A DNA stretch of 64,000 bases, from positions 110,037 through 174,036 of the forward strand of contig JBDRLL010000010.1 of NCBI GenBank assembly GCA_043813075.1. Direction: 5' to 3'. Every line of letters starts with the position of its first letter. The stretch's first letter is position 1. Positions 29,517-58,967 of this stretch are shown one piece after another. The translations under genes were made by a program, and so were the position numbers. This DNA comes from Candidatus Altiarchaeota archaeon. Its GTDB lineage: Archaea > Altiarchaeota > Altiarchaeia > IMC4 > SCGC-AAA252-I15. Below the pieces are notes generated by a model, which had not been told where the DNA came from, did no database searches, and was given only the letters and a program-made list of their open reading frames with translations.

Positions 29517-29614
29517 AAAGTGAGATAAACTATTGGTTTAGCTGTATATAAATCTTTTCCTTTTTGTGGTGGAGCACCATAAACCGCCGACTATTTTTTA
29601 AGAATTAAGACAAG

Positions 29615-29656
29615 ATATTTATCCAATCTTCCGGGCTGGTAGTCTAGTCGGTTATG
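29615..29656 (+). repeat. Direct repeat copy 1: 18 nt of upstream sequence plus the first 24 nt of tRNA-Val (partial 5' tRNA copy)
   Basis: atatttatccaatcttccgggctggtagtctagtcggttatg is identical to 29726-29767. It diverges after tRNA position 24. Confidence 0.9.
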
Positions 29657-29664
29657 CCGGAACC

Positions 29665-29683
29665 CCTTTTCCCACAGAAAAGG
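29665..29683 (+). other. Hairpin (7-bp stem, 5-nt loop) in the spacer after the partial 5' tRNA copy
   Basis: ccttttc ccaca gaaaagg; the arms are perfectly complementary. Confidence 0.6.
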
Positions 29684-29743
29684 TGTTTCAACCCCAAAAG
29701 AACATAATTTATAACCTAAAGCCACATATTTATCCAATCTTCC

Positions 29744-29817
29744 GGGCTGGTAGTCTAGTCGGTTATGACGTCGCCTTTACGAGGCGAAGATCCCCGGTTC
29801 GAATCCGGGCCAGCCCA
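29744..29817 (+). tRNA. tRNA-Val (anticodon UAC)
   Basis: Manual cloverleaf: acceptor GGGCTGG/CCAGCCC, D arm GTCT-AGTCGGTTA-TGAC, anticodon arm TCGCC-TTTACGA-GGCGA (TAC), T arm CCCGG-TTCGAAT-CCGGG, discriminator A. 74 nt, no encoded CCA, no intron. Confidence 0.9.
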
Positions 29818-29845
29818 CTCAGATAACAGCAATAGCATTCTGTGT
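29801..29845 (+). repeat. Direct repeat copy 1: last 17 nt of tRNA-Val plus 28 nt of trailer
   Basis: gaatccgggccagcccactcagataacagcaatagcattctgtgt is repeated at 29884-29928 with one mismatch (c/t). Confidence 0.9.
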
Positions 29846-29864
29846 CAACAACCGGCCAGGATAA

Positions 29865-29882
29865 GCAACTTGAAAAAGTTGC
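29865..29882 (+). other. Hairpin with GAAA tetraloop between the two 3' repeat copies
   Basis: gcaactt gaaa aagttgc; perfect 7-bp stem. Confidence 0.6.
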
Positions 29883-29883
29883 G

Positions 29884-29928
29884 GAATCCGGGCCAGCCCA
29901 CTCAGATAACAGCAATAGCATTTTGTGT
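29884..29928 (+). repeat. Direct repeat copy 2 (partial 3' tRNA-Val copy plus trailer)
   Basis: 44 of 45 nt identical to 29801-29845. It is followed by a T6 run at 29936-29941. Confidence 0.9.
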
Positions 29929-55638: not shown

Positions 55639-57495
55639 GTGATGGACGCATTCCCCTACCCACGCGTGCGGCCGGGACAGAAGGAGTTCATAGCGGACGT
55701 TGAGGCTGCGTTGAAGGGCCAGGGCAACCTGGTCGCCCACGCTCCGACTGGCATAGGCAAGACCGCTGGTGTTGTCGCCCCCACACTCATGCATGCGTTG
55801 AAGGAGGGTAAGACTGTTTTCTTCCTGACGCCCAAGCACACCCAACACATCATAGTCGTCGACACACTCCAGCGGATAAAGGAGAAGATTAGGGCGGACT
55901 TTACTGTCATCGACATCATCGGCAAGCAGTGGATGTGCCCCCACCATATCAGCGACCTTTCTTCCCGGGAATTCAACGAGTACTGTAGGGCGAGGAAGAA
56001 GGATGAGGCGTGCACGCAATACAATAACGTACGCCGCGGGAAGCTTTCCGCGAGGGCGAAGGATCTTGTGGGAGAGTTGAAGGGCAGTGTGCTCCACAAC
56101 GAGGCATTGAAGAAGATGTGCCACAAGCACGACATGTGCCCCTATGAAATCTGCGTTGAGGTCGGTAAGAAGGCCGACTTCGTCGTCTGCGACTACTTCC
56201 ACGTGTTCTCCCCGTCGGTTAGGCGGGCTTTCATGGCCAAGCTGAACAAGCAGGTCTCAGACTCCATAATCGTCGTCGACGAGGCCCATAATCTCCCTGA
56301 CAGGGTGAGGAAGCTCTTGAGCAACAATCTCAGCGACTTCGCTTTGAAGCGGGCGGTCAAGGAGGCTTCATCACTCGGATTCCATGATCTCTCAGAGGAT
56401 ATTTCGTCTCTGAACAGTGTGTTGCGGAAGATGGGGAAGGGTTTGGGTGACGGCAGGGAGTCTTACGTGGGGAGGGATGATTTCATGAAACTTGTTTCAG
56501 AGTCTGTTGAAGCAGGCTACAATGACTTTACCGCCGACGTAGTGTCTCTCGGAGAGGAGGTGTTGAAGATTCCTGGACGCTACCGCTCTTTCTCCCGTGT
56601 CGTCGCACGCTTCCTGGAGTCTTGGAAGGGTGATGACGTCGGCTTCACGCGCATACTCCAGAAGTCCGGGCGCAACATCTCATTGAGCTACAAGTGCCTT
56701 GACCCATCAGTATCCTCAAGGGATGTATTTGACGAAGCCTCCTCCAGCATACTCATGAGCGGGACTCTCGTGCCATTGAGGATGTATTCCGACGTCCTAG
56801 GCCTCGATGAGTCCAGGACTGGGGAGAGGGCGTACACTTCCCCATTCCCCCATGAGAATCGTTTATCCCTTATCGTGCCCGGCGTCACGACAAAGTATAG
56901 CAGCCGCGGCGACCACATGTTCACTAGGTACGCCCGCATGCTGTCTGACATGATATCGAAGATTCCCGGCAATGCGGCGGTCTTCTTCCCAGCCTATCAC
57001 CTCATGAAGTCTATCATGCCCAGGGTTAATCCTGGCGTGAAGGAGTTTCTCGTGGAGCGGCAGGACATGCGGAAGGACGACCGGCGGAGGATGTTTCAGC
57101 GGCTTGTCAGCCTCCGCGACAATGGAGGCGGCGTGTTGTTCGGTGTGCAGGCCGGCTCGTTCAGCGAGGGTCTTGACTATGCCGGCAACCTGCTTGACGC
57201 GGTCGTGGTCGTCGGCCTTCCGTTGGAGCACCCGGATCTGGAGACTCAGGCCCTCATCGACTATTATGACTTCCGTTTTGAGCGTGGCTGGGACTATGGC
57301 TATATCTACCCTGCAATGAACCGGGCGTTGCAGGCGGCGGGCCGTTGCATCAGGAGCGAGACGGACCGTGGCGTGGTCGTCTTGATGGATGAGCGGTTCC
57401 GTTGGGGGAACTACCGGAAGTGCTTCCCCCAGGACATGGAGTTTGTTGTTAGTGAGACGCCTGAAAGGCATTTGGAAAAGTTTTTCAATAGTTGA
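55639..57495 (+). CDS. xpd: XPD/Rad3-family Fe-S DNA helicase
   Basis: 618 aa. APTGIGKT, VVDEAHNL, and four Cys of the Fe-S domain (CPHH, CRARKKDEAC, CPYE). Confidence 0.9.
   Translation: MMDAFPYPRVRPGQKEFIADVEAALKGQGNLVAHAPTGIGKTAGVVAPTLMHALKEGKTVFFLTPKHTQHIIVVDTLQRIKEKIRADFTVIDIIGKQWMCPHHISDLSSREFNEYCRARKKDEACTQYNNVRRGKLSARAKDLVGELKGSVLHNEALKKMCHKHDMCPYEICVEVGKKADFVVCDYFHVFSPSVRRAFMAKLNKQVSDSIIVVDEAHNLPDRVRKLLSNNLSDFALKRAVKEASSLGFHDLSEDISSLNSVLRKMGKGLGDGRESYVGRDDFMKLVSESVEAGYNDFTADVVSLGEEVLKIPGRYRSFSRVVARFLESWKGDDVGFTRILQKSGRNISLSYKCLDPSVSSRDVFDEASSSILMSGTLVPLRMYSDVLGLDESRTGERAYTSPFPHENRLSLIVPGVTTKYSSRGDHMFTRYARMLSDMISKIPGNAAVFFPAYHLMKSIMPRVNPGVKEFLVERQDMRKDDRRRMFQRLVSLRDNGGGVLFGVQAGSFSEGLDYAGNLLDAVVVVGLPLEHPDLETQALIDYYDFRFERGWDYGYIYPAMNRALQAAGRCIRSETDRGVVVLMDERFRWGNYRKCFPQDMEFVVSETPERHLEKFFNS
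57431..57495 (+). repeat. Direct repeat copy 1 (authentic 3' end of xpd)
   Basis: aggacatggagtttgttgttagtgagacgcctgaaaggcatttggaaaagtttttcaatagttga; compare 57574-57638. Confidence 0.85.
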
Positions 57496-57573
57496 TACTT
57501 CATGTGTCTGAGTCGTTGAGTGAACGTAGTGAACGAATGCGGCTCCCTGGTGTGAACTGACAGCGGCAGTTCT

Positions 57574-57638
57574 AGGGCATGGAGTTTGTTGTTAGTGAGG
57601 CGCCTGAAAGGCATTTGGAGAAATTCTTTAGCGTCTAG
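57574..57638 (+). repeat. Direct repeat copy 2: orphan copy of the xpd 3' end (19-codon remnant preceded by a stop)
   Basis: agggcatggagtttgttgttagtgaggcgcctgaaaggcatttggagaaattctttagcgtctag encodes MEFVVSEAPERHLEKFFSV*, versus MEFVVSETPERHLEKFFNS* in xpd. Confidence 0.85.
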
Positions 57639-57653
57639 TCCCTATCCTATCTT

Positions 57654-58052
57654 ATGTCTGTCGAGAAGCGTGTTGTTTCCGGTGGAGATGACTTGGTTGG
57701 CGGGGTTGAGTTGCGGAAGCCTCTCATACACATTGTGCGTCCGATTGAGGAGCATTACTGGCGTGATCTAGGCGACCGTATTGCAGTGCAGAAGCCTGTT
57801 GAACTCACCGTCCTTGACGACGACCCGTCTTTCAGGCAGCGTTTTCCGGACGAGCTTGTGGGTTTGTGCCGTGAATTGAGGGGGGAGGGTGTCAGGAAGA
57901 TTCATGTCTGCTATGATGCTGCCGGCCCTCACCATGAATTCATCTTTCAGATTGCTTCTGTCATGGGTTTCCGTCCGCACGGGAAGGGTGAGGGCAGGAT
58001 GTATGTTGAATTGAGTCGTTTGGACCGGTTCCTGGAGCGGGCAGGAAAATAG
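57654..58052 (+). CDS. Hypothetical protein
   Basis: 132-aa ORF with no recognised motif, directly after the xpd-end duplication. Confidence 0.4.
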   Translation: MSVEKRVVSGGDDLVGGVELRKPLIHIVRPIEEHYWRDLGDRIAVQKPVELTVLDDDPSFRQRFPDELVGLCRELRGEGVRKIHVCYDAAGPHHEFIFQIASVMGFRPHGKGEGRMYVELSRLDRFLERAGK

Positions 58053-58066
58053 ATAAAAAACAAGAC

Positions 58067-58093
58067 TATCTTATATTATATAAGATTATTTTT
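58067..58093. terminator. AT-rich palindrome plus T-run between convergent genes
   Basis: atcttatat t atataagat (9-bp arms) followed by tatttttt. It lies between the stops of 57654-58052 (+) and dapF (-). Confidence 0.4.
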
Positions 58094-58967
58094 TGTATTG
58101 GAAGTTTCCGGTGAATACTGTCTCCGCTGGCCCCGTCATCCTGACGTCAGTGAACCCACTGCCGTCTCCATCCAGGTTTATCTTCACTATGCCCCCCCTG
58201 GCGTGGAATACGAGCGTCCTGGAGGTGTCTGCCTTGCCTGCGAGCGCGCTGGCGACGGCGCTGGCGCATATCCCTGTTCCGCATGCGAGCGTCTCCCCTT
58301 CAACACCCCGCTCGTAGGTCCTTATCCTGAATTCGTTGTCTCCGACATCCTCAACGAAATGCACGTTTACCCCGTTTGGGAATGCCTTAACATAATGTCG
58401 GATGGTGCTTCCGTCGCCTAGCACGTCGGCTTCATCGACGTCGTCCACGAACAATACGGCGTGCGGGTTGCCCATTCCTACTGCAGTGATCACGTAGATG
58501 TTCCCGTCAACGTCGACTTCCTCCAGCACCATCGGCTCTGAAGGGTCGCCAATAGTGACTTGAGCGTCACCACGCTCCACCTGGGGGGCTCCCATCGACA
58601 CCATAACCCCCCTTACTATGCCGTCTGAAACCTCCAGTTCAAGCCTCTTCACTCCTGCAAGCGTCTCTACGCTAATAGACTCGTTTCCCACAAGGTCTTT
58701 CTCGTACGCGTATTTTGCGAAACACCGTATGCCGTTCCCGCACATCTCAGCTATGCTGCCGTCAGGGTTGAAGAAGTGGAATCTCGCGTCCTGGCTGGAA
58801 GACTTCTGCACAAAGATGACTCCGTCAGATCCAACCCCAAAATGTCGGTCAGAGACCATGGCCACGAACGACGGCTTCTCCTCCTCTGGAATGACCTCAG
58901 CCTCCCATTCGTCAACGACGATGAAGTCGTTTCCTGCCCCCTGCATTTTTGTGAACCTTACGTCCAT
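58086..58967 (-). CDS. dapF: Diaminopimelate epimerase
   Basis: MQGAGNDFIVVD, NPDGSIAEMCGNGIRCF and LACGTG (the two catalytic Cys motifs). Confidence 0.9.
   Translation of the reverse strand: MDVRFTKMQGAGNDFIVVDEWEAEVIPEEEKPSFVAMVSDRHFGVGSDGVIFVQKSSSQDARFHFFNPDGSIAEMCGNGIRCFAKYAYEKDLVGNESISVETLAGVKRLELEVSDGIVRGVMVSMGAPQVERGDAQVTIGDPSEPMVLEEVDVDGNIYVITAVGMGNPHAVLFVDDVDEADVLGDGSTIRHYVKAFPNGVNVHFVEDVGDNEFRIRTYERGVEGETLACGTGICASAVASALAGKADTSRTLVFHARGGIVKINLDGDGSGFTDVRMTGPAETVFTGNFQYKK

Follow-up and report, generated by a model that had tools for sequence, protein, structure and literature searches.

The stretch of DNA analysed here (the window) comprises 64,000 nucleotides (nt) from a Candidatus Altiarchaeota archaeon (assembly GCA_043813075.1, contig JBDRLL010000010.1, positions 110,037 to 174,036 of the forward strand). 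It carries xpd, the gene of a Rad3/XPD-type helicase, together with a duplication of the 3' end of this gene. The first-pass annotation had described a second xpd 3' end 143 nt downstream of the first, preceded by an in-frame TAG, and both the repeat search and the sequence agree with that description. The direct repeat (57431-57485 versus 57574-57628) is 55 nt long with 91% identity and a spacing of 143 nt. Each half of the repeat core was found exactly twice in the window, where 0 are expected in shuffles, and the core has only two copies in the whole assembly. This assembly is referred to as G000 (1.8 Mb, 41 contigs); other G numbers denote relatives of the same order and L numbers denote loci. 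The xpd protein ends with ...DMEFVVSETPERHLEKFFNS, and its last two codons and stop (57487-57495) lie past the repeat, within the insert that separates the two copies. The second copy reads GMEFVVSEAPERHLEKFFSV followed by a stop (57576-57638), and the TAG (57573-57575) is found just before it. Since the offset of 143 nt is not a multiple of 3, copy 2 is out of frame with xpd. The effect on xpd itself is small: the helicase reading frame stays complete. Orthologues of xpd are present in 32 of 41 relatives, and a related-locus search of the genome_contigs loci did not recover a close XPD relative.

The two copies in G000 differ at six of the 56 positions compared, and all six differences are transitions. 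Four of them are synonymous, in the codons for E, K, F and F, and two change the residue (D/G and T/A), which bears out the earlier remark that the differences are mainly synonymous and include the EKFF codons. Compared along their length, the copies show two mismatches in the first 47 nt and 12 in the last 21 nt. The final two codons and the stop are unrelated, with NS in copy 1 and SV in copy 2.

The 88 nt between the copies contain no open reading frame (ORF). Three occurrences of gtgaac had been pointed out in the spacer, and all three are there; the motif corresponds to a conserved linker/hairpin arm, GTGTGAAC, with two partial echoes of it. This arm belongs to a two-hairpin module (hairpins H1 and H3) that is also found elsewhere in the genome. 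The 3' 38 nt of the spacer align to both module copies on contig C11 of G000 with a score of 27, which was reached by none of 1000 shuffles, and the H3 stem of the insert is kept by a compensatory change from G/C to T/A. The match of the insert to the module model R1 is full-length and ranks second in the window, and it is significant only given its prior placement between the repeats. Judged by these alignments, the G000 xpd spacer appears to be a degenerate member of the two-hairpin module family. The coordinates of all features are collected in Table 1.

Table 1. Features of the window discussed in the text (positions are those of the window).
Feature	Position	Strand	Basis or remark
xpd (Rad3/XPD-type helicase, 618 aa)	55639..57495	+	ORF list; Pfam DEAD_2, HBB, Helicase_C_2
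Repeat copy 1, the functional xpd 3' end	57431..57485	+	direct-repeat search, pattern searches
Non-coding 88-nt insert: new tail (..NS and stop), H1-like stem, linker, hairpin H3	57486..57573	+	sequence, fold
H1-like stem GAGTCGT...GCGGCTC, holding two tandem AGTGAACG motifs	57510..57545	+	minimum-free-energy fold
Match to module model R1	57538..57572	+	cmsearch; linker CCCTGGTGT
Hairpin H3, GAACTG-ACAGCGG-CAGTTC	57554-57572	+	ends 1 nt before copy 2
Repeat copy 2, the displaced xpd end with own tail and TAG stop	57574..57638	+	repeat search; junctions in relatives
Orphan 132-aa ORF between copy 2 and dapF	57654..58052	+	ORF list; outside the repeat-bounded insert
dapF, conserved convergent neighbour of xpd	58086..58967	-	Pfam DAP_epimerase; synteny xpd, dapF, polB
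tRNA-Val (29744-29818) with both ends duplicated	29597..29928	+	repeat search, sequence

The module itself is about 55-60 nt long. It consists of H1 (8-12 bp, variable in sequence), an 8-nt linker that ends in GTGT (..CGYGTGT), and H3, which has the form NNACGG-AGCGAG-CCGTNN. H3 is 99% paired and shows compensatory changes, and its two outer pairs covary freely in at least nine combinations. The fold with two hairpins recurs across the module copies. The xpd spacer of the relative G013 is a canonical module that scores 51 bits and contains GCGTGTGCACGGAGCGAGCCGTGC. This string also stands at the end of a 60-nt insert on contig C1 of G000, flanked by duplicated sequences of the trpE end and trpG start, and it lies beside tRNA genes at five further sites in that genome.

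To determine how far the module extends, its 18-mer GTGTGMACGGAGCGAGCC was scanned against 185,579 species genomes (genome_contigs). It was found at 54 loci, about 35 of which are in archaeal records, and the number of bacterial matches is about that expected by chance according to our own estimate. Many of the archaeal loci belong to the same order as the window under varied NCBI labels, and others are labelled Thermoplasmatota, Nanoarchaeia/Woesearchaeota or Methanosarcinales. The records named 'Methanobacteriota archaeon' or 'Euryarchaeota archaeon SCGC AAA252-I15' (L063, L077-L079 and L091 in JBDRAY01; L096 in AQSC01000051) correspond to G008 and G019, two genomes of the order to which the window belongs, so that fewer phyla carry the module than the NCBI labels suggest. 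Within the order, a covariance model that covers the 3' 34 nt of the module gave between 0 and 11 copies per genome.

About half of the module copies are accompanied by a duplication of the target. In a cross-phylum sample, the downstream flank was directly repeated at 17 of 33 testable module copies, compared with 20 of 2397 control positions; a repeat was counted when it started at most 8 nt after the module and had its partner within 400 nt upstream. In the order-wide sample, 20 of 42 module copies had such a flanking repeat, which started 0-2 nt after H3 in 19 of the 20 and 7 nt after it in the remaining one. The repeats of the target are 15-96 nt long, and the insert varies on the side that faces away from H3. 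As targets, tRNA genes are hit in their 5' or 3' portion, and a few protein genes (xpd, trpE/trpG, polB and others) at an end; two stacked module copies are found at some tRNAs. The same architecture is present in metagenome-assembled genomes (MAGs) from different assemblers and studies, as well as in a single-contig genome of 1.39 Mb (L100/G026). Eight loci were searched against Rfam without a match at E <= 1, and the canonical copy of G013 had none at E <= 10. No description of the module sequence, or of small archaeal elements with long duplications, was found in the literature searches. The module family is apparently an undescribed kind of miniature insertion that is widespread in archaea.

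Several other sites in G000 and its relatives show how the module sits in or beside genes. At G000:C1:1772-1961, outside the window, the trpE end and trpG start are duplicated over 65 nt, with a 60-nt canonical module in between. As read from the sequence, an ORF runs at this site from the duplicated trpG ATG through the module and the second trpE end to the ATGA of the real trpG, and this ORF may preserve translational coupling. The trpE/trpG junction is also occupied in G012 (L070/L125) and G002 (L083/L127). At the polB 3' end of G013 (L097 4021-4039; G013:C13:28010-28043), the module is flanked by two copies of ..GKQMTLGDW and stop. A MAG that is rich in GC and labelled Thermoplasmatota (DATLBS01; L071, L074, L085 and L101) has the module within a longer repeat that shares more than 100 nt on both sides at four or more loci, perhaps as the centre of a more extensive repeat family. 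Duplications and unusual structures without the module occur as well. A perfect 63-nt direct repeat, with its copies 16 nt apart, is found at a two-ORF junction in G000:C9:17899-18040 and has no module. A tRNA gene at G000:C6:2940-3134 (L046 341-535) has a 123-nt intron at the canonical position with the AT-rich hairpin CTTTCTTTCCTAAAGAAAGAAAAGGG inside. ARAGORN found only 14 tRNAs in the G000 genome, which is 89% complete, and therefore many of its tRNAs probably carry unusual introns.

The annotation had proposed a comparison of the xpd loci of related genomes. When 49 genomes of the same order (Altiarchaeales) were searched with a profile of the XPD C-terminus, a second xpd end was found 40-95 nt past the xpd stop in four relatives in addition to G000, namely G013, G024, G029 and G048. 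This amounts to five of the approximately 34 xpd-bearing genomes of the order, and the five fall in two families, f1 and f5, the latter comprising G024, G029 and G048. The left edge of the repeat is at WGNY in G013, at YSKC in G029, at DM(E/D)F in G000 and G024, and at TE.P in G048; the cases therefore look like separate events at one hot spot. The gene order of the family is xpd, convergent dapF, polB. The stop codons of copy 2 and dapF overlap in G013 (CTAG), and the DNA next to copy 2 in G048 matches the region past xpd in G035. Since copy 2 is joined to ancestral downstream DNA in both genomes, it is copy 2 that represents the original end. It follows that the new DNA is the tail plus the spacer, with or without copy 1. 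The copies in G029 are identical over 59 of 59 nt and then pass into a decayed tail, and the tail after copy 1 encodes the conserved DKFF motif. The G013 copies have 1 mismatch in 24 nt and then 15 in 59. The AT-rich hairpin that is seen in the spacers of f5 is multi-copy in these genomes, near tRNAs.

The junction between xpd and dapF is a general insertion hot spot. In G016 (L107, G016:C68) the xpd gene extends about 40 codons beyond the FFG end, and both G016 and G012 (L109, G012:C9) have about 1 kb of unrelated DNA between xpd and dapF. A decayed xpd-like 3' fragment (..KRGWDYGYYYP..RERITWDKYRRCLP..DKFFEH) was noticed in G036 (L025, G036:C92:5990-6300), whose other xpd-like genes are long paralogues only. 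An extra weak match to an xpd end in G001:C174 was judged spurious.

As had been suspected from the sequence alone, the duplication at xpd did not arise by a replication slip; an insertion at the 3' end of the gene left it as a scar. The broader suggestion of a recombination or integration scar stands as far as the insertion at the xpd 3' end is concerned. It does not stand for a cargo-bearing island, as the insert is 88 nt long and free of genes. A simple tandem duplication of the form A-B-A-B was ruled out because the DNA past copy 2 is unlike the spacer. Stop-codon readthrough or an in-frame extension of xpd was ruled out as well, because the frame of copy 2 relative to xpd is different in each genome.

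Which of the two copies is foreign can be approached through codon usage. The mismatches between copy 1 and copy 2 at the first, second and third codon positions are 2, 2 and 12 in G013, 2, 3 and 9 in G024, and 1, 1 and 4 in G000. Third positions thus account for 25 of the 36 mismatches, against a fraction of 0.46 expected for neutral decay of copy 2 (p = 0.004). The GC content at third codon positions (GC3) of the G013 xpd gene is 84% (492/583) upstream of the repeat and 57% (20/35) from the repeat start to the stop (p = 2e-4), and the shift begins about eight codons into the repeat. Copy 1 of G013 uses codons that are rare in the host (TCT 0.06, TTT 0.13, ATT 0.08, ACT 0.06), while copy 2 uses common ones. 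The summed codon log-ratio is +15.8 bits for the G013 xpd site, +6.1 for the trpE site at L083 and +2.8 for the polB site of G013. By reading of the copies, the L083 trpE site has seven synonymous codon differences and no residue changes over the two 13-codon copies, and six of the seven differing codons at the polB site are synonymous. The functional copy is therefore host-atypical and the displaced copy native-looking in the cases of G013 xpd and L083 trpE, which means that the working end came from elsewhere. In G013 xpd and L083 trpE, the insert appears to have brought a replacement gene end. The annotation had supposed an element that carries such a replacement end, and this idea gains support at these two sites, whereas the value for G000 itself, given below, carries no information on it. 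It was also considered that the identical block might always lie at the module-proximal end of the repeat; this failed on 16 loci.

From these observations, it is somewhat more probable than its opposite that the 88 nt in G000 are a degenerate copy of a miniature insertion element without proteins, in which a unit that includes a copy of the target end recombines with the target and replaces the gene end. The mobile unit would consist of the target-end copy, filler and module, 79-175 nt in all. It would recombine with the chromosomal target inside the shared segment by one exchange, which could be a single crossover of the Campbell type or, equivalently, a polymerase that switches onto a small circular template and off it again. 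The gene would then run into the element-borne replacement end, which is copy 1, and the host's own end would be pushed downstream as a dead copy, which is copy 2. Under this proposal, the differences are mostly synonymous because both copies were working ends in different lineages until the event, and template switching on a small circle would also give rise to the tandem stacks. We infer the circular or single-crossover intermediate, and likewise that the event in G000 took the same route.

A number of observations weigh against this proposal. The match of the G000 insert to R1 is weak, with 7.2 bits and E = 2.4 window-wide (cmsearch). The fold energy of the insert is no better than that of shuffles (z = +0.84), and its H1-like stem is weakly supported. 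The codon log-ratio of G000 is -0.28, and with only four synonymous codon differences it has no power; that of G024 is -4.05 and has the opposite sign, a value that fits an older, decaying copy 2. The mismatches are not biased to either end of the repeat over 16 loci (mean position 0.54, p = 0.53), and therefore the crossover site is not located. The xpd spacers of f5 (G024, G029 and G048) have an AT-rich hairpin, CTTTCTTT..AAAGAAAG, adjoining copy 2 in place of the canonical module, so that the module family may not cover all five xpd cases. Double-stranded circles of 80-175 bp are physically awkward, and the searches yielded no recombinase, no free form and no pair of empty and filled sites from one population.

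The machinery that might move the module was sought along several lines. The tyrosine integrase family (PF00589) has no match in the G000 assembly, and across genomes the number of integrases does not follow the number of modules. No recurrent neighbouring protein and no distant repeat partner was found at 32 module loci. An integrase next to a module in G012 turned out to belong to another element, which lies across the tRNA from the module. The reverse transcriptase family PF00078 is present in only six of the 49 genomes and is absent from G000 and most of the module-rich genomes. Target-primed reverse transcription, as in short interspersed elements, was ruled out on this phyletic pattern; the 5' repeat at the tRNA-Val of the window moreover includes the untranscribed promoter. 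A diversity-generating retroelement with template and variable repeats was also rejected, as there is no reverse transcriptase and only one of the six differences is at an adenine of the downstream copy. Four genomes with 7-11 modules each (G000, G012, G002 and G008) lack the Y1 transposase family (PF01797), whereas this family is abundant in G042, a genome without modules. Module counts are thus uncorrelated with PF01797, and mobilisation by a Y1 transposase, as for repetitive extragenic palindromic (REP) sequences, was ruled out on phyletic grounds. A C/D-box small RNA, a bulge-helix-bulge intron and a ribozyme were dismissed as well, as Rfam gave no match and the module is not consistently sense or antisense to its targets. 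It had also been suggested to look for the repeat core as an attP-like site in viral contigs; the 21-nt repeat core and the module 18-mer have no match in the IMG/VR contigs.

Two further features of the window had been linked to the xpd duplication. The first is the ORF between copy 2 and dapF, which had been put forward as residual cargo with possible homologues on mobile elements. Its 132-aa product has no Pfam match, the exact-protein look-up returned no record, and among 5.8 billion proteins only the ORF itself was recovered. It is missing from the equivalent position in G001, G002 and G013. Rather than cargo of the element, the ORF, which lies outside the repeats of a gene-free insert, is either spurious or an independent insertion specific to the lineage. 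The second is the tRNA-Val gene of the window, both ends of which are duplicated (5' end, 29597-29659 and 29708-29770; 3' end, 29801-29845 and 29884-29928). The parallel that had been drawn with xpd is a real one in layout: in each case a short spacer separates two copies, and its terminal hairpin lies directly against the partial one. The hairpins at tRNA-Val differ from the canonical module, and the cmsearch scan of the window with R1 gave no match there. The two sites share an architecture, and a common origin is conceivable.

Other explanations of the xpd duplication have to be set against the proposal of a unit that replaces the gene end. The most serious one is that a plain insertion duplicated its target site over a long and variable length, by way of filled staggered breaks or template-switch repair; both copies would be native, would have been identical at insertion and would have diverged in place. 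It agrees with repeat lengths of 15-96 nt and no fixed length, with the many near-identical pairs (59/59 in G029, 48/48 in L125, 46/46 in L133) and with the fact that all six differences in G000 are transitions, which is compatible with damage to exposed single strands; the pattern is documented for bacterial restriction-modification genes (PMC2853133). However, the differences are concentrated at synonymous sites far more than neutral decay of copy 2 would allow (p = 0.004), the host-atypical codons are in the functional copy and not in the dead one (G013, L083), and the DKFF encoded by the G029 tail after copy 1 is not expected of random inserted DNA. These points make a plain target duplication rather unlikely. 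A remnant of a conventional integrase-bearing element (a virus, plasmid or island) that, after inserting at the 3' end of xpd, was stripped of almost all its DNA, with the downstream ORF as leftover cargo, is improbable. Direct repeats at a gene 3' end with a replacement end are a hallmark of such elements, unrelated inserts of about 1 kb do occur at the xpd/dapF junction in G012 and G016, and tRNA fragments left by elements of 9-23 kb are well known in archaea (PMC9897764). Against this, the inserts at all five xpd cases and at about 40 module sites are only 40-300 nt long, and neither the repeat partners and neighbours at the 32 loci, nor the integrase counts, nor the viral contigs point to a larger parent; the supposed cargo is an orphan outside the repeats.

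The remaining explanations concern what copy 2 does and whether it exists. Copy 2 might be functional, either as a translated micro-ORF (MEFVVSEAPERHLEKFFSV in G000) or through removal of the insert at the RNA level or ribosomal bypass. Its frame is kept open in G000, G013 and G024, and in G013 it is in frame after the xpd stop, with a GTG codon adjoining this stop. In G000 and G024 (G024:C13, L027), copy 2 opens with a start codon that gives a micro-ORF of 19-21 aa (in the window, the ATG is at 57436-57438 and 57579-57581). These two are the only listed XPDs with Met in DM[ED]F, where the others have F, and the repeat starts at that ATG; judging from the letters, this could be a coincidence or a hint that copy 2 is translated. 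The ORF at the G000 trpE/trpG site, as read above, would be a further point in favour. On the other hand, the frame of copy 2 differs in every genome, the copy is truncated or decayed in G029 and G048, the module is read in different frames at different sites, and Rfam gives no bulge-helix-bulge or ribozyme match. The codon-usage result already accounts for the synonymous pattern, and a functional copy 2 is considered very improbable. Less credible still is an assembly artefact that joins the xpd ends of two co-occurring strains, even though G000 is a MAG of 41 contigs and its copies differ like two alleles. The architecture is shared by assemblies of independent origin, including the single-contig genome, the spacer has homologues in copies of the conserved module at other places in the genome, with its hairpin stopping 1 nt short of copy 2, and the copies share no 31-mer that could mislead a de Bruijn assembler.

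The proposal of a gene-end-replacing unit can be extended further, with distinctly lower confidence. It is conceivable, and for now doubtful, that the module marks a new class of protein-less archaeal mobile cassette, in which a short replica of the end of one host gene, be it a tRNA gene, xpd, trpE or polB, both finds the target by homology and replaces the displaced end, and which passes from lineage to lineage as units of 80-175 nt, for example as single-stranded circles through template switching. If this is true, small archaeal genomes hold mobile DNA much shorter than any integrative element known so far, and an element that has no genes of its own spares its target genes by bringing a spare end. 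Such cassettes would be a source, so far overlooked, from which compact archaeal genomes acquire fragments of tRNA genes and recoded gene ends; they would account for many of the incomplete tRNA genes and repeated gene ends by which the annotation of archaeal MAGs is confused. A foreign end would record its donor and so could serve as a marker of DNA exchange between lineages. The cassettes would also point to a recombination activity, of the host or acting in trans, that recognises the very conserved hairpin ACGG-AGCGAG-CCGT.

Several known systems resemble the element in part. Site-specific integrative elements insert in the 3' ends of tRNA or protein genes and supply a replacement end; examples are the SSV1/pNOB8-type elements of archaea and ICESt1/ICESt3 in the 3' end of fda in Streptococcus thermophilus. 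As in these systems, repeats of the target flank the insert, the gene is kept intact by a supplied end, the displaced host end remains as a partial copy, and the targets are tRNAs and gene 3' ends. Unlike these systems, the module inserts are 40-300 nt long and carry neither an integrase nor any other gene, their repeats vary between 15 and 96 nt by site, and neither a full-size relative nor a copy in viral contigs was found. Pavlovic et al. reportedly described in 2004 att-flanked derivatives of integrative and conjugative elements (ICEs), the cis-mobilisable elements (CIMEs), which lack recombination genes. The similarity to CIMEs lies in the attL- and attR-like bounding repeats and the lack of an own recombinase, and tandem accretion resembles the stacked module copies at tRNAs. 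However, CIMEs measure kilobases and lie beside a recognisable parent ICE, whereas the conserved part here is a 55-60-nt module with no known parent.

The 'insertion with long target duplication' of restriction-modification genes produces variable target duplications of more than 30 bp (Nobusato et al. 2000; Furuta et al. 2010, PMC2853133). Shared features are the long and variable duplication, the lack of a transposase or integrase and the frequent overlap with a gene 3' end; the 55 nt at xpd exceed 30 bp. Those insertions are bacterial protein-coding units without a shared terminal module, whereas a non-coding conserved module is present here and one repeat copy is foreign in two cases. MITEs (miniature transposable elements with inverted repeats), REP sequences and bacterial interspersed mosaic elements (BIMEs), and the palindromic elements of Rickettsia are likewise small, non-coding, hairpin-forming and multi-copy, and are tolerated in or beside genes. 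The module differs from all of these in having no terminal inverted repeats, no short target duplication of fixed length and no correlation with Y1 transposases (RAYT/IS200). Furthermore, only one of its ends, the 3' end at H3, is precise, while the 5' end is variable and unrelated. The element thus lacks defining features of each kind compared, be it a recombinase gene, terminal inverted repeats, a fixed duplication length or coding cargo. We infer a mechanism and a particular history for the duplication in G000, and regard the xpd case of the window as one protein-gene instance of this kind of miniature insertion.

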